From an uncultured Candidatus Saccharibacteria bacterium (GTDB lineage Bacteria > Patescibacteriota > Minisyncoccia > Phycocordibacterales > GWA1-40-21): a stretch of 64,000 nucleotides of DNA. The stretch lies in assembly GCA_964513515.1 (NCBI GenBank), contig CAZEMP010000001.1:11336-75335 (forward strand). The letters run 5' to 3'. Positions 8,827 through 39,640 of this stretch are shown one piece after another. The position numbers and the translations under genes are program-made. Under the pieces are notes generated by a model. That model was not told where the DNA came from and did no database searches. It worked only from the letters and a program-made list of their open reading frames with translations. Positions within the stretch are counted from its first letter, which is position 1, and the number at the start of each line of letters is the position of its first letter.

Positions 8827-10140
8827 ATGATTAATACTAAAGAAAATATAATCTATTTGTACAAAAGGGAATTAGTAACTACATTTTTTGTATTTCTATT
8901 TATATTATTTTTTAGTAATAATTTTGCTTTTTCAGCTACAGAGGAAGAATTAAGAAATCAGATACAAAAAGTTACAGAAACAAAAGTTCAATTAGAGCAA
9001 GAAATATCTAATTATGAAAAAGAATTGAAACAAATTGGGGATGAGACTGTCTCACTTAAAAATACAATAAAAGCTTTAGATGCTACTATTAATAAAAACT
9101 CATTAGATATTAAACTTACGCAAAATAATATAGATAAGGTTACTCTTGAAATTGAAGAATTATCTTTAAATATAGTTAAAGGTGCAAATACCATAAATAA
9201 GAACACAAGGGCTATAGCATCTCTTTTAAGAGAATCAAATACCTACACGGAATCTTCTCTTATAGAAAACTTATTAACATATAAGAATCTATCTGATTTT
9301 TGGAATGAGCAACAAAACATAGCTATTATTCAAAATGAAATAAGAGAAAAAACGGTTGAGATTAAAAATGAAAAAATTGTATTAGAAAATAACAAAACTA
9401 AGACTGAAAAAAAGAAGAGAGATTTATTGAATCTCAAATTTAGCTTGTTAGATAAAAAGAAAATTTTAGATTTAACAAAGAAAGAAAAAAATCAATTATT
9501 AATTGAGACAAAAAATTCTGAATCAAATTATAAAAAAATACTTGCAGATAAAAGAGCGTTGGTTGAAGCTTTTGATAAAGAACTTTTACAGTTTGAGTCA
9601 CAATTGAAATTTTCTATAGATAGAAACAGCTTTCCATCCACTGGAAAGGGAATATTATCTTGGCCATTAGATAATGTTAGAATTACTCAAAGGTTTGGTA
9701 TGACTGAATTTGCAAGAACTACGAATTATTACAATGGGAGAGGACATAACGGTGTGGATTTCGGTGCCTCTATGGGTACAGATGTTAAAGCGGCCTTAAG
9801 TGGAGTGATTAAAGGGGCTGGAGATACTGATATGACATGTCCGAATGCATCATTTGGTAAATGGGTTTTGATTGAACATGCAAATGGTCTTTCTACTATA
9901 TATGCACACCTTTCTTTGATAAGAGTTAGCGCTGGGCAAATAGTAACAACAGGGGATGTTATAGGGTATTCTGGTAATACAGGATATTCAACAGGTCCGC
10001 ACTTACACTTCGGAGTTTATGCGACTCAAGGTGTAAAAATAATGAGTAGAAAAAGTGTATCAGCTGCTTGTAGTGGTAGAACATATGTCATGCCTATCGC
10101 AGATTTGAGAGCTTATTTAGACCCTTTGCAGTACTTGTAA
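8827..10140 (+). CDS. M23-family peptidase with N-terminal TM segment and long coiled coil (EnvC-like)
   Basis: Coiled-coil rich N-terminal half; C-terminal HNGVDFGA...GNTGYSTGPHLHFGV M23/LytM motifs. Confidence 0.7.
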   Translation: MINTKENIIYLYKRELVTTFFVFLFILFFSNNFAFSATEEELRNQIQKVTETKVQLEQEISNYEKELKQIGDETVSLKNTIKALDATINKNSLDIKLTQNNIDKVTLEIEELSLNIVKGANTINKNTRAIASLLRESNTYTESSLIENLLTYKNLSDFWNEQQNIAIIQNEIREKTVEIKNEKIVLENNKTKTEKKKRDLLNLKFSLLDKKKILDLTKKEKNQLLIETKNSESNYKKILADKRALVEAFDKELLQFESQLKFSIDRNSFPSTGKGILSWPLDNVRITQRFGMTEFARTTNYYNGRGHNGVDFGASMGTDVKAALSGVIKGAGDTDMTCPNASFGKWVLIEHANGLSTIYAHLSLIRVSAGQIVTTGDVIGYSGNTGYSTGPHLHFGVYATQGVKIMSRKSVSAACSGRTYVMPIADLRAYLDPLQYL

Positions 10141-10215
10141 AATTATTGTAAAATAAGCGTTATAAGAAAATTGTACGAATTATTACGAATCGTTACGAAT
10201 AATTAATAAACTCAA

Positions 10216-10461
10216 ATGAATAAAGGATTAATAAAAACAATTATATTAATAGTTATTGCACTCATTGTACTTGGATATTTTGGTTTTGATGTTGCAGATA
10301 TTGTTAATAGTCCTACTGTTCAGGCAAACCTTACGAATACTTGGAACTTCGTATTAAAGATTTGGAATAATTATCTAGCAACCCCTGTAATGTATGTTTG
10401 GAATACTTTTGTAGTCGGAGTGCTTTGGAAGCTAATTCAAGCTGGTTCTGGTATCAACTAA
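10216..10461 (+). CDS. small hypothetical membrane protein
   Basis: 81 aa, two predicted TM helices; followed by hairpin terminator at 10504-10527. Confidence 0.4.
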   Translation: MNKGLIKTIILIVIALIVLGYFGFDVADIVNSPTVQANLTNTWNFVLKIWNNYLATPVMYVWNTFVVGVLWKLIQAGSGIN

Positions 10462-16860: not shown

Positions 16861-18255
16861 ATGTTTCTCATGTCGGTTACTGAACACAGAAAAATAAATA
16901 TAAGAATTCCACCTCAAAATATAGAATCTGAGAAAGCACTTCTTGGTTCTATTATGCTTCGTCCAGAAGCACTTGTTGAGATCATGGATATTATTCGTCC
17001 AGAAGCTTTTTATGCTGATAAGCACAAAACTATTTTTGAAGCGATGGTTCATCTTTATGAAAAAAGAGAACCGATAGACCTTCTCACCCTGTCTTCAAAA
17101 CTAAAAGAATCTGTAGATTTAGACAGAATAGGTGGAATGAGCTATCTAACAGAAATAGTAAATGTTGTCCCCTCTTCCTCAAATGCAGAACACTATGCAA
17201 CTATTGTTTCTAAAAAGCACACAATGCGTAAGCTTATAGAAGCAGCAGAACATATTGCAAAAATAGGATATGACGAGGAGCATGAGATTGAAGAACTGTT
17301 AGATAGAGCTGAGAAAAAAATATACGAAGTTACTGCTAAAAATCTTTCTGGAAAATACGTAGAAATGAAAGATGTTTTAAGTGATGCTATGGAAAGACTT
17401 GATAGGCTCCATAAAACAAAAGGCGAACTTCGTGGTGTTCCTACAGGATTCAAAGATTTGGATAAGAAACTTTCTGGACTTCAAAATTCAGACCTTATAA
17501 TACTTGCAGCACGACCTTCTATGGGAAAAACTTCTCTGGCACTAGATATTGCAAGAAATGCTGCTATTCGTCACAATGTCCCTACTGCTATTTTCTCTCT
17601 AGAAATGAGTACGCAACAGCTAGTAGACAGAATGCTTTCAGCAGAGTCTAAAGTTGATGCTTGGAGACTAAGAACCGGCGCTCTAAATCTAGAAGAAGAG
17701 TTTGGAAGAATAACAGCTGCACTCGACCCTCTTTCAAAGGCTCCTTTATATATTGATGATCAAGCTGCAAATAATATTTTAAAAATACGTTCTGTTGTCA
17801 GGCGTCTTAAACATGAAAAGAAACTTGGTCTTGTGATTATAGATTACTTACAACTTATGACACCAGTTCATACAAAAGGTGGTGACAATATGGTGCAACA
17901 AATTACAGAGATTTCTCATTCTTTAAAACAATTAGCAAAAGAATTTGATATTCCAGTCATTGCTCTTTCACAGCTTTCTCGTGCTGTGGAGCAAAGAGGA
18001 GGAAAACCAAGACTTTCAGACTTGAGAGATTCTGGTTCTATTGAACAGGATGCCGATGTGGTCATGTTTATTCACCGTGACCAAAATGACGAAGGAGGTG
18101 GAAAGAAACAGAATGCAGAGATTCTTATCGAAAAACACAGAAATGGACCTACGGGTAAAATAGATCTATTCTTTGATGGAGATAAATCATCTTTTCTATC
18201 GATAGATCATTCAGCACAATTTGGGGACTTCAATAACAACCCAAGTGTCTTTTAG
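16861..18255 (+). CDS. dnaB: replicative DNA helicase
   Basis: N-terminal PPQNIESEKALLGSIML, Walker A ARPSMGKT, RecA-like C-domain. Confidence 0.85.
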   Translation: MFLMSVTEHRKINIRIPPQNIESEKALLGSIMLRPEALVEIMDIIRPEAFYADKHKTIFEAMVHLYEKREPIDLLTLSSKLKESVDLDRIGGMSYLTEIVNVVPSSSNAEHYATIVSKKHTMRKLIEAAEHIAKIGYDEEHEIEELLDRAEKKIYEVTAKNLSGKYVEMKDVLSDAMERLDRLHKTKGELRGVPTGFKDLDKKLSGLQNSDLIILAARPSMGKTSLALDIARNAAIRHNVPTAIFSLEMSTQQLVDRMLSAESKVDAWRLRTGALNLEEEFGRITAALDPLSKAPLYIDDQAANNILKIRSVVRRLKHEKKLGLVIIDYLQLMTPVHTKGGDNMVQQITEISHSLKQLAKEFDIPVIALSQLSRAVEQRGGKPRLSDLRDSGSIEQDADVVMFIHRDQNDEGGGKKQNAEILIEKHRNGPTGKIDLFFDGDKSSFLSIDHSAQFGDFNNNPSVF

Positions 18256-18260
18256 GTTGC

Positions 18261-18705
18261 GAATCAACAAATGTAACGAATAATACGAATGGCTACAAAT
18301 AAAATACAGGAAAAAGTATTATATCCAGAATTATCATATATATTAGTTGGTGTACTTTTTTCTACCCATAATGAAATTGGTCCATACGCAAGAGAAAAAC
18401 AGTATAATGATCTTATTGAAATAAAATTGAAAGAATCTAAAGTTCCATACAAACGTGAATTTAAAATAGCCGACTCTGGAAATATCCTAGATTTTTTAAT
18501 TGATAATAAGATCATATTGGAAACAAAAGCTACGAGAATTATTACAAAAGAACACTATAGACAAATACAAAATTATTTACAAGCCACTGGTATTAAACTC
18601 GGTATTCTGATAAATTTTAGTAATAGATATGTAAAGCCAATTAGAGTTTTAAAAATGGATCTATAATTATTTGTAGCCATTCGTATCATTAGTATAATTC
18701 GCATA
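18261..18705 (+). mobile_element. GxxExxY-gene element bounded by ~27-bp imperfect terminal inverted repeats (ATACGAATGGCTACAAATAA)
   Basis: The 5' repeat 18281-18305 contains the gene start codon; the reverse complement of the 3' end (18666-18705) matches the 5' end; solo and miniature copies of the repeat occur at 24308-24350 and 39555-39640. Confidence 0.4.
18289..18666 (+). CDS. GxxExxY-family protein
   Basis: 125 aa; N-terminal ...ELSYILVGVLFSTHNEIGPY... (GxxExxY-like), C-terminal GILINF typical of this family. Confidence 0.55.
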   Translation: MATNKIQEKVLYPELSYILVGVLFSTHNEIGPYAREKQYNDLIEIKLKESKVPYKREFKIADSGNILDFLIDNKIILETKATRIITKEHYRQIQNYLQATGIKLGILINFSNRYVKPIRVLKMDL

Positions 18706-18716
18706 TTTGCAAACAT

Positions 18717-19334
18717 ATGAATTCGATTGATAAACTTATTCAAATATTTTCAGAATTTCCTGGTATCGGCCCCAAGCAAGCGAGAAGATTTGTTTATTTT
18801 TTAATAAACAGAAACGAAGCTTATATTGAAGAATTAAAAAATCAAATCTCTGAACTTAGAAAGGGTGTTAGCTCTTGTTTTGATTGTAAAAGGTACTTTT
18901 TTTCAAAGTTCGACACCCAAACTTTATGTAGTATTTGTTCAGATAAAACTCGGGACACAAGTATACTTATGATAGTAAGTCGTGATATAGATTTGGAAAA
19001 TATTGAAAAAGGACACAGTTTTCTTGGTAAATATTTTGTACTTGGTGGACTTGTACCAATACTTGATAAAAATCCTGAGCAAAGGATTCGTTTGAAAGAA
19101 CTTTTAGCTCTTGTGAGTAGAATGTCAGACAAAGGTTTGAAAGAAATAATATTGGGTCTTGATGCAAACTCTGAGGCCGAATATACAGGTAATATTTTGA
19201 AAACTTCCCTCTCCCCCATCACAGAAAAATATTCTATAAAAATATCTGAGCTTGGTCGCGGACTTTCTACAGGAACAGAGCTTGAATATTCTGATCCAGA
19301 AACTATTAAGAATGCATTGAAGAATAGAAGTTGA
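18717..19334 (+). CDS. recR: recombination protein RecR
   Basis: FPGIGPKQARRFVYFL HhH motif, C4 zinc finger (CFDCK...CSICSD), Toprim domain. Confidence 0.85.
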   Translation: MNSIDKLIQIFSEFPGIGPKQARRFVYFLINRNEAYIEELKNQISELRKGVSSCFDCKRYFFSKFDTQTLCSICSDKTRDTSILMIVSRDIDLENIEKGHSFLGKYFVLGGLVPILDKNPEQRIRLKELLALVSRMSDKGLKEIILGLDANSEAEYTGNILKTSLSPITEKYSIKISELGRGLSTGTELEYSDPETIKNALKNRS

Positions 19335-19345
19335 AAGTAAAAGGA

Positions 19346-19381
19346 AAGGCGGCATGCAGTTTAGTAACCACACGCCGCCTT
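19346..19381. terminator. hairpin AAGGCGGC...GCCGCCTT between recR and convergent island gene
   Basis: 8-bp GC stem, convergent gene ends on both sides. Confidence 0.45.
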
Positions 19382-19395
19382 CAGTTGGAAACATT

Positions 19396-19845
19396 CTACA
19401 CACGGGACACCGTCCTTATGTAGAGATTTCCGGAAAATCTCCCGATGACATACTTTGTCATAACGAGAGAATTTTCTGACAGTGTGTTAAAGAACTTTTT
19501 TGAGACTGACACGCTGTCTTGCTTACCATCAAGCCTCACCCACACAGACCAGTTGGCTGGCTCGGTTACGAAGTGAGGCATGCTGGTTTTCGTGGCCGCA
19601 TTGGGTATTAGGATCATCTTAGTGTGTGATGGGGTGAACCTTTTTTTAACCACACGGCCCACTTTTCGACTCGGTTTCAGAAACCATGAGTCGAGTACTA
19701 AGAACAAACCTTCTAGGATGAGCCATATCGATATTAGGACGCTCACCAGTAGGATGATCATGACGATTGTGCCAAGAGGCCAATCGCAGATCCCCCATCT
19801 GATCATAGTCCACAGTTCGTTCAAGAAACTCATGATGTCCTCCAT
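19396..19845 (-). CDS. hypothetical membrane protein (G+C-richer island, gene 0)
   Basis: Annotated ORF extends to 19866 by a TTG start. The first ATG is at 19845, but a GGAGGA SD 4 nt upstream of a second ATG at 19833 favours the shorter start. Minus-strand promoter TTGACT-17-TACAAT at approx. 19885-19915; one TM helix. Confidence 0.4.
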   Translation of the reverse strand: MEDIMSFLNELWTMIRWGICDWPLGTIVMIILLVSVLISIWLILEGLFLVLDSWFLKPSRKVGRVVKKRFTPSHTKMILIPNAATKTSMPHFVTEPANWSVWVRLDGKQDSVSVSKKFFNTLSENSLVMTKYVIGRFSGNLYIRTVSRV

Positions 19846-19973
19846 AGGGTACGATTTACCACTCAATATTCACTCTATCAATTGTAACATACTAAATAAT
19901 AATAGTCAATATTTATGTATAATTAATAAATTTATTCTTTAAATTATAGTTTCATCGGTTTTTAAAAGTAGAA

Positions 19974-20001
19974 GAGCCCCTCCGTTGCCGGAGGGGCTCT
20001 C
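19974..20001 (-). terminator. hairpin AGAGCCCCTCCGTTGCCGGAGGGGCTCT (copy 1 of 2)
   Basis: 11-bp GC stem immediately downstream of minus gene 20023-20511; identical hairpin at 20608-20633. Confidence 0.6.
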
Positions 20002-20022
20002 TTGAATCCTAGAGCTGAAAGC

Positions 20023-20511
20023 TCAGGGATTTTTTTGTTCTTCTTCTTCGATGGCGACACCGGCGTACCACATGGTGTCTTCCCAGCCCACGTCGTTGCG
20101 AACGACGCAGACGAACCGTTCACCTTCCTTGGCATCACCCTTTGGCTTCTCCACGTAGAAGGTAGCGGAGCACCAGTTGCCGTTCTCATCCTGCCAGTGG
20201 GTAGTGTTCGGCCTGGTGTCGATCAGATGCGGATCTTCCTCATTCTTGGCAGCGAGCGAGTACGGATCGGCAGGCACGAGCCCCCGCTTCGCATACTCCA
20301 CATCCGCCGTTTCGTGTGTGAGGAATTTGCCTGGACAGAAAAGGTGGATTTTGACTTTATCCCCCTTTCCTCTCGGCATCTTCGCGACAACCTCGTCGGT
20401 CGTGAGTTTCCTCAGACCAGTCGCATCGAGTGCCTCATGTGGCGATCTCGAACGAATGACCGGGACTTCGTAGACTTCTTCCATCATCGTATTGATCTGG
20501 CCTCCCATCAT
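20023..20511 (-). CDS. hypothetical protein (G+C-richer island, gene 1)
   Basis: 162 aa; minus-strand promoter TTGATA-17-TATAGT and SD TAGGAGAGGTGA 7 nt upstream of ATG; no recognisable family. Confidence 0.45.
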   Translation of the reverse strand: MMGGQINTMMEEVYEVPVIRSRSPHEALDATGLRKLTTDEVVAKMPRGKGDKVKIHLFCPGKFLTHETADVEYAKRGLVPADPYSLAAKNEEDPHLIDTRPNTTHWQDENGNWCSATFYVEKPKGDAKEGERFVCVVRNDVGWEDTMWYAGVAIEEEEQKNP

Positions 20512-20607
20512 GCGTCGTCACCTCTCCTAGAATAAAAAATTACTGCAGAGAACATTTCTGGAAAACTATACACTTTATATTTGTATATATCAAGAGATTA
20601 AAAGAAT

Positions 20608-20633
20608 GAGCCCCTCCGTTGCCGGAGGGGCTC
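20608..20633 (-). terminator. hairpin GAGCCCCTCCGTTGCCGGAGGGGCTC (copy 2)
   Basis: Identical to 19974-20001; downstream of minus gene 20647-21093. Confidence 0.6.
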
Positions 20634-20646
20634 TCTGAACTCTTAG

Positions 20647-21093
20647 CTACTTTTTTACACCAATATAGCGATAAAGATCGCTCCAGTAGCTTGAGACAAA
20701 TACGTCTAGACAGAGAGCACGTTTCTCTGCACTACCAGTTAGATAGGCAGCGGAGCACTCTTTGCTGTATCCGAGAGAAACAATCGGGAATTTCTTTTGT
20801 AGATTTGGCTTTTGGGTAGCCAGACTCAAAAGATCCCAGAATGAACCAGGCATGTACGCTACCTTATCCATTTGAGCCCGAACCTCATCTCGAAACATAT
20901 TTTTATCGAAGTGGAAAAGTGCGATTTCTTTCTTCACCACCTTCGCATTACTTGATCGGGGAAAGTTTTGTTGATCAATTTTGCTATCTATCCAATCAAA
21001 CCTCCCCAATCGCACAGCATCTTCCACTTCTATCGTCTCATCGACCAAAAGAGTGAAAGTTTCCATCGTATAGCCGATCACCCTGTCGGTCAT
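20647..21093 (-). CDS. hypothetical protein (G+C-richer island, gene 2)
   Basis: 148 aa; SD AACGAGGTGAAG upstream; candidate promoter TTGTGA-17-TATTAT; no recognisable family. Confidence 0.45.
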   Translation of the reverse strand: MTDRVIGYTMETFTLLVDETIEVEDAVRLGRFDWIDSKIDQQNFPRSSNAKVVKKEIALFHFDKNMFRDEVRAQMDKVAYMPGSFWDLLSLATQKPNLQKKFPIVSLGYSKECSAAYLTGSAEKRALCLDVFVSSYWSDLYRYIGVKK

Positions 21094-21181
21094 TTTAACT
21101 TCACCTCGTTACCAGAAATAACATTCGAAAAGAACAAGTCATGTGAATAATACACATTTTAAATGTACATCACAATACAAA

Positions 21182-21258
21182 ACGAATTTTCACTTCGTGA
21201 AAATTCGTCTTTTGTTTTTATATTTACTAAAACCTAGTACCTGCCTGCGCAGGCAGGC
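21182..21258. terminator. pyrG 3' terminator region: 12-bp perfect inverted repeat ACGAATTTTCAC/GTGAAAATTCGT plus palindrome CCTGCCTGCGCAGGCAGG
   Basis: Two strong hairpins between pyrG stop (21266) and island promoter. Confidence 0.5.
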
Positions 21259-21265
21259 CTAGAAG

Positions 21266-22918
21266 CTATAACCTATTTTTAATTGCTGCCTTTATGAATT
21301 CAGTAAATAGTGGATGAGGTGAAAGTGGTCTCGCTAAAAATTCTGGATGGAATTGTGTACCTAAGAAAAACGGATGTACTTTTCTAGGTAGCTCTGCTAT
21401 TTCCATAAGGATACCGCTGGGAGATTTGCCAGAAAACACTAACCCTGCATCTGTAAGCTGTTCTATGTATTCGGGATTTACTTCATATCTATGCCTATGT
21501 CTTTCTTGCACTATGTTTTTTCCATAAGCTTCTTCTGCGATCGTTCCTTTTTCTAAATGAGCGTCATATGCTCCAAGTCTCATACTTCCTCCATAATTAT
21601 GTTCTTCAAGCTTCTTTTTCTGATCTGGCATTATATCTATAACAAGATTTTTTGAATTAGGATTTATTTCTGCAGTTGTAGCATCTTTCAAACCTAAAAC
21701 ATTTCTTGCGTATTCAATGACCATAAGTTGCATACCATAGCAAAGCCCGAAATAAGGAATTTTATTTTTTCTCGCATACTCTATTACAGAAAGCTTCCCT
21801 TCTATACCTGTTTCTCCAAAACCTCCAGGAACGATGATGCCATCAAATTTGTTTAAAGCTTTGAAATCTGCCTTTTTGTCTCCTTCATAATCACGAGAGT
21901 TCACTATGTGTATGACAGCCTTTTTACCCATTTTATATGCAGAATATTTTATTGCTTCAAGTACAGAGATATATGCGTCAGTGAGAACAAAATCTCCGGT
22001 ATTAAAATATTTCCCTACAATAGCTATATCCAATGTATCTTTTACACTTTTTACTTTATTTGCAAAATCAATCCATTCTTGTATTCCAGTTTCATTTTTC
22101 TTTTTACGTAAATGCAGAAGCTTCATCAGAATGTGAGTGATATTATCTTTTTCAAAATTTAAAGGTACATCAAAAACACTTTCAATATCTGGTGCAGAGA
22201 TAACTTGTTCTACCGGCAAGCTACATGAAATAGCAATTTTCTCTTTTCTCCTATGATCCATTGGCACTTCGCTTCTTGCGATGATGATATCTGGATTGAT
22301 ACCGTAAGAGTTCAATTGTCTGATCGCATTTTGTGTTGGCTTAGATTTCATCTCGCCAAGTTTTGATGGTATAGGTAGATAGCTCACAATGACAAAAGCA
22401 ACATCATGAGGATGCATAACTTTCATAACACGAGCTGCCTCCATGAACATTATGTTTTGATAGTCGCCAACAGTTCCTCCTATTTCTACAACTGTAATGT
22501 CGGATTTGTTTACCTTTCCAGATTTGGTGAATCTATGCACTATTTCATCTCTAATCTGTGGTATTGCCTCTACACACTTTCCACCGTATTTAAGGGCTCT
22601 TTCAGCCTCTATAACGTGTTTATAGACCATTCCTGAAGTAATATAGTCATCTGCCGTGAGGCTTTTATTGAGGAATCTTTCATAGTTTCCCATATCCTGA
22701 TCTGTCTCAAGTCCAGAATCAAGAACAAAAACCTCGCCATGTTCTACAGGGTTCATTGTTCCAGCGTCTACATTTAAATACGGATCAACCTTAAGAAGAT
22801 TTACCTTAAAACCTTTTGATTGAAGAAGGGCTCCAATAGATGAAGTCGCTATACCTTTACCAACTCCAGACATAACACCTCCGATAACAAAAATATATTT
22901 ATGCGACTTACTTTTCAT
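21266..22918 (-). CDS. pyrG: CTP synthase
   Basis: 550 aa; N-terminal GGVMSGVGKGI, C-terminal glutamine amidotransferase (GLCYGMQ, HPEF). Confidence 0.9.
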   Translation of the reverse strand: MKSKSHKYIFVIGGVMSGVGKGIATSSIGALLQSKGFKVNLLKVDPYLNVDAGTMNPVEHGEVFVLDSGLETDQDMGNYERFLNKSLTADDYITSGMVYKHVIEAERALKYGGKCVEAIPQIRDEIVHRFTKSGKVNKSDITVVEIGGTVGDYQNIMFMEAARVMKVMHPHDVAFVIVSYLPIPSKLGEMKSKPTQNAIRQLNSYGINPDIIIARSEVPMDHRRKEKIAISCSLPVEQVISAPDIESVFDVPLNFEKDNITHILMKLLHLRKKKNETGIQEWIDFANKVKSVKDTLDIAIVGKYFNTGDFVLTDAYISVLEAIKYSAYKMGKKAVIHIVNSRDYEGDKKADFKALNKFDGIIVPGGFGETGIEGKLSVIEYARKNKIPYFGLCYGMQLMVIEYARNVLGLKDATTAEINPNSKNLVIDIMPDQKKKLEEHNYGGSMRLGAYDAHLEKGTIAEEAYGKNIVQERHRHRYEVNPEYIEQLTDAGLVFSGKSPSGILMEIAELPRKVHPFFLGTQFHPEFLARPLSPHPLFTEFIKAAIKNRL

Positions 22919-22947: not shown

Positions 22948-23016
22948 TGTCATTCCCGCGCATGCGGGAATCTAGGATTTAATTGAATCTGGATTCTCGC
23001 ATGCGCGGGAATGACG
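22948..23016. repeat. composite GC-rich palindromic element (two inverted TGTCATTCCCGCGCATGCGGGAATC hairpin units around an AT spacer)
   Basis: Each unit is itself a palindrome ATTCCC-N8-GGGAAT; second copy of the family at 24393-24466. Confidence 0.6.
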
Positions 23017-23514: not shown

Positions 23515-24297
23515 ATGCAAGAAAAAAAGAACAATTTATCAATTCCTGTTGCCATTATAATCGCAGGTTTTTTGATAGCAGGAGGTATATATTTATCAAA
23601 CAAATCAGACACTCCAAGATCACAAGATAATCAGGCTGTCACAAACACTACAGACATAAACATTAAGCCAATTTCAAAAGACAATCACATTTTGGGTAAT
23701 CCGGATGCTCCTGTAGCACTTGTAGAATTTTCTGATACCGAATGTCCATTCTGTAAGATGTTCCACACTACAATGCAATCTCTTATGAATACTTATGGAA
23801 AGGATGGAAAAGTAGCTTGGGTATACAGACACTTCCCCCTAGACTCTATTCATCCAAAAGCAAGAAATGAAGCAGAAGCAACAGAATGTGTAAATGATCT
23901 TGGAGGTAACACAGCTTTCTGGAAAATGCTTGATACAATTTACGCAAATACCCCATCAAACAACGGACTTGATGCTGCCAAACTTCCAGAATTTGCAAAA
24001 TTAGCTGGTGTTGATGTTGCAAAATTTAACTCATGTTTGGAAAGTGGAAAGTTTGCATCTAAAGTAAATTCTGATTTTCAAGATGGAGTAGCGGCCGGTG
24101 CTCAAGGTACTCCATATAGTGTTCTTGTTTTAAAAAATACATTGTCATCTGGTGCAGAAAGCACATTACAAGAATATATACTAAAGAATGGATTGGCTCA
24201 GAACGTAATAATTTCATCATCTAAAAAGGAAGTTGTTTTGAGCGGAGCTTTGCCGGTGGATATGATAAAGACAATTCTAGATTCAATATTAAATTAA
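23515..24297 (+). CDS. DsbA-like thiol:disulfide oxidoreductase, membrane-anchored
   Basis: N-terminal TM helix; thioredoxin-fold CPFC active site (FSDTECPFCKMFH). Confidence 0.65.
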   Translation: MQEKKNNLSIPVAIIIAGFLIAGGIYLSNKSDTPRSQDNQAVTNTTDINIKPISKDNHILGNPDAPVALVEFSDTECPFCKMFHTTMQSLMNTYGKDGKVAWVYRHFPLDSIHPKARNEAEATECVNDLGGNTAFWKMLDTIYANTPSNNGLDAAKLPEFAKLAGVDVAKFNSCLESGKFASKVNSDFQDGVAAGAQGTPYSVLVLKNTLSSGAESTLQEYILKNGLAQNVIISSSKKEVVLSGALPVDMIKTILDSILN

Positions 24298-24307
24298 ATA
24301 TACCAAT

Positions 24308-24350
24308 ATACGAATGTAGCGAATGATACGAATGGCTACAAATAATTAAT
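24308..24350 (+). repeat. solo copy of GxxExxY-element terminal repeat (..GATACGAATGGCTACAAATAATTAAT)
   Basis: Near-exact match to reverse complement of 18666-18705 and to 18281-18305, without an adjacent gene. Confidence 0.55.
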
Positions 24351-24392: not shown

Positions 24393-24466
24393 TGTCATTC
24401 CCGCGCAGGCGGGAATCCAGAATTAATTTGATCAAACCTAGATTCCCGCCTACGCGGGAATGACAT
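24393..24466. repeat. composite GC-rich palindromic element, copy 2 (TTGTCATTCCCGCGCAGGCGGGAATCCAG ... GATTCCCGCCTACGCGGGAATGACA)
   Basis: Same architecture as 22948-23016; abuts stop codon of 24467-26038. Confidence 0.6.
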
Positions 24467-27330: not shown

Positions 27331-27407
27331 CTGTCTTTGCGAGCGAAGCGTGGCAATCCAGACAATGTTTTGTAAACCTGGTTTGCTTCGCTTTGCTCGC
27401 AAAGACG
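27331..27407. repeat. inverted pair of ~32-bp repeat (CTGTCTTTGCGAGCGAAGCGTGGCAATCCAGACA / CCTGGTTTGCTTCGCTTTGCTCGCAAAGACG)
   Basis: Third repeat family; single-arm copy at 40060-40094. Confidence 0.5.
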
Positions 27408-37133: not shown

Positions 37134-37158
37134 AAAGAAGATGTGGCCGTATAGGCCA

Positions 37159-37196
37159 GAAGCCCGCAGGAAGGTAACACTTCCCTGCGGGCTTTC
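37159..37196 (+). terminator. terminator GAAGCCCGCAGGAAGGTAACACTTCCCTGCGGGCTTTC (copy 1)
   Basis: 14-bp stem + T-rich tail; near-identical copy at 37699-37735. Confidence 0.6.
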
Positions 37197-37275
37197 TGCT
37201 TTTAAAAAACTAGACTTTATTTTTATAAAGTATATAGTTGTCTCGAATTTGTACACAAACAACTTGGGGGTAAAA

Positions 37276-37692
37276 ATGGATGCGGAAGAAACAGTTCTCG
37301 TCTTATTGAATAGGCATGGTAGCAAACCGATGCCCTGTTCAAATCTGCTGGTGCAGGCAGCTTGTCTTTCTGATGAGATCAACTGTGAGGCACGGAGGAA
37401 AAAAGATCAGTTGAGAAGCCTGGGGTATTCAGAAAAACTGATTCAGGAGATCGTAGATTTGCATAGTCACAGGACTGTGCAAACTACTCTCGATCTTTTA
37501 GAGAAGAAAGGGCTCATCGTGGGGAGACAGAACGAGCAGAAACTTCTTCGCGACATTGAACATTTAAACCTGAAGATTCTTCCGAGTGTCATGGAGCAAC
37601 TCAGGATCAATCTTCTCTCCTACAAGCTTACCAAGAACGGTTTACAAAAGCTGTGGGAGAAAGCCGCAAGAACACAGGGTTCAGATCATTGA
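37276..37692 (+). CDS. hypothetical protein, paralog P2 (G+C-richer)
   Basis: Homologous to P1 along full length (..LLNRHGSKPMP.. vs ..LLALSKHQGKPVV..; ..YKLTKNGLQKLWEK vs ..YQITSKGLRWWLKH); SD-like TTGGGGGTAAAA before ATG. Confidence 0.45.
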   Translation: MDAEETVLVLLNRHGSKPMPCSNLLVQAACLSDEINCEARRKKDQLRSLGYSEKLIQEIVDLHSHRTVQTTLDLLEKKGLIVGRQNEQKLLRDIEHLNLKILPSVMEQLRINLLSYKLTKNGLQKLWEKAARTQGSDH

Positions 37693-37698
37693 ACCAAA

Positions 37699-37735
37699 GA
37701 GCCCGCAGGAAGGTAACACCTCCCTGCGGGCTTTC
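37699..37735 (+). terminator. terminator GAGCCCGCAGGAAGGTAACACCTCCCTGCGGGCTTTC (copy 2)
   Basis: Duplicate of 37159-37196 with one loop substitution. Confidence 0.6.
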
Positions 37736-37758
37736 TGCTTATAAATAAAATTGCAAAC

Positions 37759-39548: not shown

Positions 39549-39554
39549 TATACA

Positions 39555-39640
39555 AATCAACGAATGAACGAATAATACAAATGGCTACAAATAATTAATT
39601 CGTTGTCATTCGTATTATTAGTATAATTTGTTAATTCGTA
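39555..39640. repeat. miniature element: 5' and 3' terminal repeats of the GxxExxY element abutting with no cargo (MITE-like)
   Basis: GAATAATACAAATGGCTACAAATAATTAAT followed directly by TTCGTTGTCATTCGTATTATTAGTATAATT, matching both ends of 18261-18705. Confidence 0.5.

Follow-up and report, generated by a model that had tools for sequence, protein, structure and literature searches.

REP-associated tyrosine transposases, the RAYT half of the REPIN/RAYT pair, are reportedly flanked by REP sequences, and the intervening sequences of 23S rRNA are said to carry a small open reading frame (ORF) between inverted repeats. Free-standing homing endonuclease genes, such as seg and mob of the T-even phages, are known for 'intronless homing', and I-Ssp6803I is a homing endonuclease of the PD-(D/E)XK type. 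The insertion sequences from which classical MITEs arise encode a DDE transposase, and clear duplications of the target accompany these MITEs. The Correia element of Neisseria is a bacterial MITE with no known coding parent (PMC10969869).

Here we describe a GxxExxY nuclease gene that lies between dnaB and recR in a 64,000-nt stretch of DNA from an uncultured Candidatus Saccharibacteria bacterium (hereafter the window). We favor, with a probability of roughly 0.55, the view that this locus represents the 'autonomous', gene-bearing version of a palindromic intergenic element with a wide distribution in Patescibacteria, i.e. a selfish nuclease-plus-palindrome with MITE-like derivatives. The gene-plus-repeat unit is apparently an undescribed MITE-like mobile element subject to gain and loss: the literature that we searched describes no such elements in Patescibacteria, and it mentions the family name while containing nothing on the function of GxxExxY/PF13366 proteins.

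The unit in the window consists of the following features, with E values from a profile HMM trained solely on 40 arms from other genomes.

18257 to 18302, plus strand: left arm of the gene-bearing element, with five [AG]CNAAT sites at a spacing of 8, 9, 9 and 10 nt (HMM E = 7.8e-10)
18289 to 18666, plus strand: GxxExxY / PDDEXK_3 nuclease gene, 125 aa, with conserved E29, D68, E78-x-K80 and Q92xxxY96 (AlphaFold pLDDT 91.5)
18667 to 18712, minus strand: right arm, inverted, from the base after the stop codon (HMM E = 1.1e-11)

The ORF has dnaB (16861-18255, plus strand) upstream and recR (18717-19334, plus strand) downstream. As proposed in an initial annotation of the sequence, the gene lies inside terminal inverted repeats: the two inverted 46-nt arms enclose the ORF at a distance of 364 nt from each other, are 78% complementary and include a perfect 20-nt core. 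The left arm contains the ATG (18289), which that annotation had already placed inside the 5' repeat, together with the next four codons of the nuclease gene (M-A-T-N-K), whereas the stop codon abuts the right arm, which itself ends 4 nt before the recR ATG. That the reverse complement of the 3' end reproduces the 5' repeat also holds, given that the core ATACGAATGGCTACAAATAA occurs exactly at 18283-18302 (plus strand) and at 18667-18686 (minus strand).

The encoded protein matches TIGR04256 'GxxExxY protein' (E 1.3e-20, 74 bits for a cut-off of 35) and Pfam PF13366 PDDEXK_3 (E 3.4e-22, 79.5 bits for a cut-off of 22), with no other Pfam match above threshold. The PF13366/TIGR04256 family is large, and a single genome often encodes many paralogues; databases give no function for it. 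Residues D68, E78 and K80 are invariant in 33 homologues, as are E29 and the QxxxY motif (Q92..Y96); the catalytic D..ExK is intact, and the nuclease is under purifying selection. The AlphaFold model (pLDDT 91.5) shows a PD-(D/E)XK core with the expected order of strands and helices. The nearest solved folds are weak matches (E >= 1.6e-3) and comprise Cas4 (4ic1), a lambda-exonuclease-like protein (LHK-exonuclease), tRNA-splicing endonucleases and Hjc. By its invariant motif and its predicted core, the window protein is a member of the PD-(D/E)XK nuclease superfamily, the fold that had been suspected from the DNA. No solved structure was found for the nuclease by sequence, and a search of defense-system and phage families with it returned nothing informative.

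Further copies of the arm occur in the window.

24302 to 24345, plus strand: solo arm, after a DsbA-like gene (23515-24297) (HMM E = 1.2e-14)
39552 to 39592, plus strand: left arm of a gene-less hairpin at the junction of an M23 peptidase gene (plus strand) and a diacylglycerol kinase gene (minus strand), detected by core match, array and HMM
39598 to 39639, minus strand: right arm of this gene-less hairpin, detected by array and HMM
10175 to 10200, plus strand: short variant array after an M23 peptidase gene, with three ACGAAT sites at a 10-nt spacing and the inner end AATAATTAA as in full arms (HMM E = 2e-4)

The arms of the gene-less hairpin are 5 nt apart, and its predicted folding energy is -22 kcal/mol (z = -3.2). 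These copies agree with what had been read from the letters as a cargo-less version at 39555-39640, a single end at 24308-24350 and a related ACGAAT-rich stretch at 10173-10215. All window copies are intergenic and a few bases from gene ends, again as first described, and the neighbors of the gene-less copies are two M23 peptidase genes, the DsbA-like gene and the diacylglycerol kinase gene. A weak arm-like remnant, ATGCGAATGATACAAATGACC, lies at 732-752 (HMM E = 0.004), at the junction of ORFs 263-727 and 732-1175, where it would add a spurious N-terminal extension, MRMIQMTINSKNQE, to a HIT-family ORF.

With a genome of 32% G+C and a motif that is both A+T-rich and internally repetitive, one might ask whether such copies are low-complexity sequence that is similar by chance. 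However, ATACGAATGGCTACAAATAA has four matches in the window, where 0.01 would be expected by chance: besides the two in the gene-bearing unit, it is exact at 24326-24345 (plus strand) and has one mismatch at 39575-39594 (plus strand). Moreover, the HMM built from other genomes picks exactly the window copies, i.e. the five arms (E between 1e-14 and 5e-8) and the 10169-10202 copy (E = 2e-4). Finally, a survey of 1.28 Mb recovered 163 arrays, compared to none in shuffled sequence. A chance origin of the arm copies is excluded, and with it the objection, foreseen in the initial annotation, that the copies might not be significantly similar when scored.

The arm is an ordered row of five [A/G]C-N-AAT hexamers (TAC-N-AAT sites) with start-to-start spacings of 8, 9, 9 and 10 nt, in which the third base of the hexamer is free (G > T > A > C). 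Among the 116 arrays with at least five sites in the window and 160 fetched loci, the spacing is (8,9,9,10) in 44, (8,9,8,10) in 23 and (8,10,9,10) in 13, and the consensus is ..ATAAA.ATAC.AAT-ATACgAAT-taTACGAAT-GATACGAAT-gaCTACGAAT-Aa. The fixed spacing and the consensus indicate that the arm is a defined 47-nt sequence family and not a loose tandem repeat.

Homologues of the window nuclease number in the hundreds within Patescibacteria. We fetched 80 genome loci from many lineages of this phylum, holding 84 genes that are 52-90% identical, and found arrays on at least one side in 77 of the 84 (both sides in 59, one side in 18); where both sides carry an array, the orientation is always inverted. 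The same ends are therefore found on other GxxExxY genes, a point that the initial annotation had proposed to check within the genome. Between genomes with 60-70% identical proteins, arm identity reaches 87-94% over 45-50 nt. The conserved N-terminus M-(A/T)-T-N-(N)-K derives from the inner two sites of the left arm; with residues 1-6 disordered in the model (pLDDT below 50), it is conserved as DNA and not as protein. In many relatives, the C-terminus (..RIIRIHS*) and the stop codon likewise lie within the right arm. In three plasmid records with GxxExxY genes from outside Patescibacteria, no hexamer array was found, which suggests that the array is specific to this clade; in only one of the three, from Treponema, is the gene flanked by an inverted repeat at all, and this is short (16 nt, 88%).

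Arms of the ACGAAA type are confined to one clade of the protein tree, in which they occur in at least five gene contexts, and this clade occurs together with ACGAAT-type elements in the same MAG (L070/L077, L054/L063). The repeat flavor thus tracks the protein clade, not the host, and this is our chief indirect reason to think that the nuclease reads the arms of its own element. Elements of the ACGAAA-type clade have their left arm 50-480 nt upstream of the nuclease gene, with a gap that can hold extra cargo. Cargo seen within arms includes a membrane ORF (L077, 1649-2436), a NUDIX-like ORF (L069, 6752-7696) and a reversed XRE-like gene (L053, 7520-8521), while in L125 (2488-3001) the right arm is present with a different ORF of 100 aa. 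Two left arms stand in tandem in L050 (6830-6917). In L006 (1-530), the inverted repeat extends about 45 nt outward as the unrelated G+C-rich sequence CTGAGCGATTACACTCGCAGTCAGGCGTACCCGCACAGGCAGG, perfect on both sides, and this gene-bearing unit looks set inside another palindrome.

The nuclease gene is almost always co-oriented with both of its neighbors, so that host read-through would transcribe the unit. Its recurrent contexts are dnaB > X > recR (11 loci), where X is the GxxExxY gene, ABC-2 permease > X > ABC ATPase, FtsX-type permease > X > ABC ATPase, ruvA > X > fpg, and a conjugation-like cluster. In most units the 125-aa nuclease is the only gene, and the genes adjoining the 84 copies are housekeeping genes, with no recombinase or transposase gene among them. 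Outside the gene-bearing units, the surveyed loci contain 11 gene-less hairpins (two arms 0-62 nt apart, with predicted folding at -15 to -50 kcal/mol) and 27 solo arms. These gene-less units mostly lie between co-directional genes, 2-15 nt from stop or start codons. When the central gene of each locus is left aside, gene-less units exceed further gene-bearing units by about 10 to 1.

The dnaB-recR junction offers the clearest view of gain and loss. Adjacency of the two genes is conserved in 80 RecR-centered metagenome loci, and the junction is tight (3-60 nt) in most of them, including relatives with 84-89% identical RecR (L085, 'TAAACAGGATG'; L087, 'TAAAATG'; L089). The GxxExxY unit occupies this junction in the window, L005, L092 and L126/L024, a patchy distribution over several clades, each of which also contains close relatives with a tight junction, and gene-less hairpins of the same arm family are present at this position in L110 and L117. 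An intergenic nuclease gene is therefore present or absent between conserved genes in close relatives, as is typical of free-standing homing endonuclease genes. Nevertheless, the dnaB-recR copy is shared by 11 or more species whose DnaB proteins are only about 60% identical, which also fits a long vertical residence (domestication) and counts against reading the unit as a selfish element. The same junction also holds a MazG-like ORF (L086, 112-446) and a NUDIX-like ORF (L091, 283-694), both without a flanking repeat, and is thus a general hot spot for small inserted genes.

Copies within single genomes show how the units multiply and shrink. Locus L078 contains three units at successive junctions within 2 kb, and one gene-less unit (9127-9278) shares two segments with the gene-bearing unit (9932-10415), 59 nt at 98% and 77 nt at 100%. 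These segments include the first ~20 and the last ~40 nt of the coding sequence, and the gene-less unit is thus an exact internal-deletion derivative. Similarly, a hairpin in L038 matches over 50 nt at 100%, start codon included, and in L033 both arms are 92% identical. The paralogues L058 and L075 of one MAG are 86.7% identical and lie in different contexts. Turnover of solo arms is visible between the window and the collinear locus L005, which share a nucleotide identity of ~75-80% (71-85% per segment) and have solo arms at non-orthologous sites; the window solo arm 24302-24345 is missing at the orthologous L005 site. We conclude that individual junctions gain and lose the unit, that copies of it reach further junctions of the same genome, and that it yields gene-less hairpins by internal deletion as well as solo arms. 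The initial annotation had suggested that GxxExxY genes here are carried by, or are targets of, a small mobile or MITE-like element, and this suggestion gains support from the generality of the association (77/84), the presence or absence of the unit at junctions, the intragenomic copies and the turnover of solo arms.

Because a comparison of host and element protein identity is not decisive alone, we used a synonymous-site test to compare the age of the gene with that of its flanks. Between the window and L005, 22 of 30 4-fold sites in the gene are identical, compared to 96 of 230 in the flanks (p = 0.001); between L045 and L050, the counts are 36 of 39 and 168 of 280 (p = 2e-5). The excess was not significant for L028 and L074 (p = 0.11) or for L014 and L023, where identity in the gene is if anything slightly lower, and deeper pairs are saturated at these sites. 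The arms are 85-89% identical where neutral sites are ~42% identical. Of the four closest pairs, two thus have a nuclease gene that is younger than the genes around it, although part of the excess could be due to constraint on the nucleotide sequence.

The units start with TAC.AAT and finish with ATT.GTA, come immediately after the stop codon of the preceding gene, and in many cases touch or even provide the ATG of the next one. Regarding the target-site duplication that the initial annotation had brought up, occupied and empty junctions reveal no duplication of 3 nt or more; a duplicated TA is compatible with every case but inseparable from the TA of the terminal TAC unit. In other respects the gene-less copies resemble MITEs, since they are short non-coding units with terminal inverted repeats that occur in several copies (39552-39639 and 12 further hairpins in other loci), and some (L078, L038) are internally deleted versions of a longer coding element whose ends they share. 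However, a parent transposase (DDE or similar) was found neither in the units nor beside the 84 copies.

This resemblance raises the question of whether the nuclease gene is only a passenger. The hairpins would then be ordinary MITEs moved in trans by an unlinked transposase, e.g. one of the TA-targeting IS630/Tc1 type, and the GxxExxY gene would be a frequent passenger that has landed in the centre of the palindrome. The element ends are indeed TA...TA and abut A/T-rich junctions, and removing the element with one TA leaves a plausible tight junction in L117 ('TAATATG'), L092 and L110. Unrelated hairpins follow exactly at the inner end of the window solo arm, and the other cargo in some arms (L125, L077, L069, L053) suggests that the palindrome centre may be a mere permissive landing site. 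Against this, the gene and the arms are associated throughout the sampled phylum, the ATG and the first codons are built into the arm, and the arm flavor follows the protein clade even inside one genome. In addition, none of the 84 genes has a transposase gene beside it, and a gene-less excess of about 10 to 1 falls well short of the bursts that are typical of MITEs. We consider the passenger explanation unlikely.

We also weighed the possibility that the arms serve the host. They could be operon-punctuation signals, i.e. binding sites of a host factor or mRNA hairpins for processing, stability or translational coupling, and GxxExxY would be either a vertically inherited host gene that they regulate or a REPIN/RAYT-like domesticated enzyme that maintains them. 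This would account for the placement of copies almost only between co-directional or convergent genes (1 of the 38 gene-less units lies in a divergent region), for the conservation of position at the dnaB-recR, ruvA-fpg and ABC-transporter junctions over deep divergence, and for a protein tree that largely follows context. Stable hairpins (-22 to -50 kcal/mol) are predicted as well, and so is a pairing of the two arms that encloses the ORF and sequesters the ATG in the stem.

The sequence of the arms does not bear out a role as an RNA stem. Arms that belong to one element resemble each other only slightly more than arms taken from unrelated elements do (47% and 32%, respectively, for the variable site position; 56% and 52% for the spacers), which is the pattern expected of protein recognition sites conserved to a consensus. 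Sense-strand mismatches between the arms are of the G.U type in 13 cases and of the A.C type in 27, and this lack of a G.U excess gives no sign of RNA-stem selection. Solo arms are unable to form a hairpin. The alternative named in the initial annotation, a conserved regulatory site such as a terminator that happens to overlap the gene start, fails in that the search returned 0 terminator-like sites, and the units have neither a G+C-rich stem nor a T run. A regulatory signal of the host also fits poorly with the absence of the element from close relatives with a tight junction, with near-identical copies at different junctions of one genome, and with an element younger than its flanks in two pairs. 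Taken together, a host regulatory or domesticated system appears improbable to us. Pairing of the arms in the operon mRNA, burying the ATG, is a plausible brake on expression rather than the primary function of the arms.

Several known types of sequence were considered for the arms and rejected. Promoter-like sites numbered 4 compared to 4.5 expected, and TTGTAG-N16-TATAAT, noticed by eye, fails the scan threshold. At the gathering score, Rfam returned tRNAs only, and the hairpin gives only sub-threshold chance matches. Guide arrays of the TIGR-Tas type, suggested by the periodic short repeats in the same phylum, are ruled out since spacers could not fit into the 2-4 nt between sites. We also dismissed repeats of type III toxin-antitoxin systems and attC sites of integrons, with gene-less copies that are dispersed and no integrase or ToxN-like protein.

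We therefore return to the selfish nuclease-plus-palindrome and compare it with the systems described above. It shares with the REPIN/RAYT pair a small enzyme gene flanked by inverted copies of a dispersed repeat, the presence of this repeat as gene-less doublets (hairpins) and singlets near gene ends, a gene copy that can persist for long at one position, and a repeat type that goes with the enzyme lineage. Nevertheless, the enzyme here is a PD-(D/E)XK protein (PF13366) and not a Y1 HUH transposase of the IS200/IS605 type, the arm is made of five direct TAC-N-AAT sites whereas REP is a short palindrome, and the genomes contain several gene copies and tens of gene-less copies at most. Like a free-standing homing endonuclease gene, the nuclease gene is small, wedged between conserved genes with which it is co-oriented, present or absent among close relatives, and, in some pairs, part of an element younger than its flanks. 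Genes of the seg/mob type differ in that inverted repeats do not flank them and gene-less copies of a repeat are not scattered through the genome, and they reside in phage genomes or introns, whereas the loci described here are cellular operons.

The gene-less hairpins resemble MITEs of the Correia type in being ~100-bp hairpins with terminal inverted repeats, located at gene ends, co-transcribed with their neighbors, derived by deletion from a longer element, and possibly targeted to TA. They differ in that the parent encodes a nuclease only and the ends are five-site arrays. The 23S rRNA intervening sequences also have a small ORF within inverted repeats able to pair in the host transcript, but they occur in rRNA helices and not at mRNA operon junctions, their ORF belongs to a four-helix-bundle family, and they show no gene-less spread. 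In its mode of action, the element would come closest to the REPIN/RAYT pair or to homing endonuclease genes of the free-standing kind, and it looks like a bacterial MITE family with a coding parent. It is a member of none of these classes, given that it has no Y1 transposase, that its arms are site arrays instead of short palindromes, that there is no clear target duplication or transposase, and that homing genes leave no dispersed gene-less repeats.

The mechanism that we propose starts from the structure of the unit, i.e. two inverted ~47-bp arms with five TAC-N-AAT sites each around a gene for a 125-aa GxxExxY PD-(D/E)XK nuclease, sitting at operon junctions from the upstream stop codon to, or onto, the downstream ATG. 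We infer that the nuclease would be the mobilizing enzyme, recognizing the site arrays of its own arms and making DNA breaks that lead to copying, either through break repair (homing-like) or through a cut at the terminal TA. As the only enzyme of the element, it would also move the gene-less hairpins in trans. A likely side effect is that the paired arms in the operon mRNA bury the start codon of the nuclease, which would keep its expression low. Two properties of the protein count against this proposal. A PD-(D/E)XK nuclease can cut, but we know of none that joins strands, which speaks against nuclease-driven movement, and a protein of 125 aa has little room for a separate DNA-binding domain.

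Other palindromic repeats of these genomes also contain small nuclease genes. At the dnaB-recR junction of L088 (579-965), a GIY-YIG nuclease gene of ~95 aa lies between inverted copies of GTCATTCCCGCG..GGGAATCC, with the same architecture as the GxxExxY element. This second palindromic repeat class, GTCATTCCCGCGCAGGCGGGAATCCAG ... inverted copy with an ATTCCC-N8-GGGAAT core, is gene-less at 22949-23015 and 24393-24465 in the window. A third class, the CCCGTTGGAGAT / CCCGTTAGAAGC inverted repeats, occurs at dnaB-recR with a GIY-YIG gene in L111 (2719-3001) and gene-less in L134, L143 and L144; here the recR ATG lies inside the repeat. The units in L088 and L111 suggest that these genomes may commonly have small nuclease genes set within palindromic repeats between genes.

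More tentatively, we put forward a broader hypothesis, to which we attach less than even odds, in which GxxExxY (PF13366) is the sole catalytic component of an unrecognized class of minimal mobile elements. A nuclease of ~125 aa would read the five-site arrays of its own inverted arms and spread itself and the gene-less hairpins between operon junctions, and the same strategy would have arisen convergently a second time in the GIY-YIG genes that lie within other palindromic repeats (L088, L111).

Further repeat-associated stretches were seen in the window. Directly downstream of recR, a 1.9-kb stretch (19335-21290) has a G+C content of 42%, compared to 33%, and contains three minus-strand ORFs without a Pfam match; it is missing from L005, where the next shared gene directly follows recR. 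Within it, duplicate palindromes (19973-19999 and 20608-20634) flank ORF 20023-20511. Self-complementary hairpins of ~50 nt also flank small ORFs in G+C-richer stretches, at 50632-50684 / 51347-51399 and at 37150-37201 / 37692-37743, and such pairs may be a further kind of repeat-bounded cassette. Another palindromic repeat family, GTCTTTGCGAGCG...CGCTCGCAAAGAC, is found at different sites in the window (27333-27406) and in L005 (3889-3967 and 8479-8562).

For the PF13366/TIGR04256 family, the element would offer a concrete and testable role, that of the gene of a nuclease-only mobile palindromic element, with the 47-bp five-site arm as the candidate DNA partner of GxxExxY proteins. A new class of enzyme would thereby join the few proteins so far connected with dispersed repeats in bacteria. 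The element also explains the recurrent odd N-terminal extensions and the intergenic hairpins in the annotation of Patescibacteria, and it would show that selfish DNA is active inside essential operons of these small, streamlined genomes.
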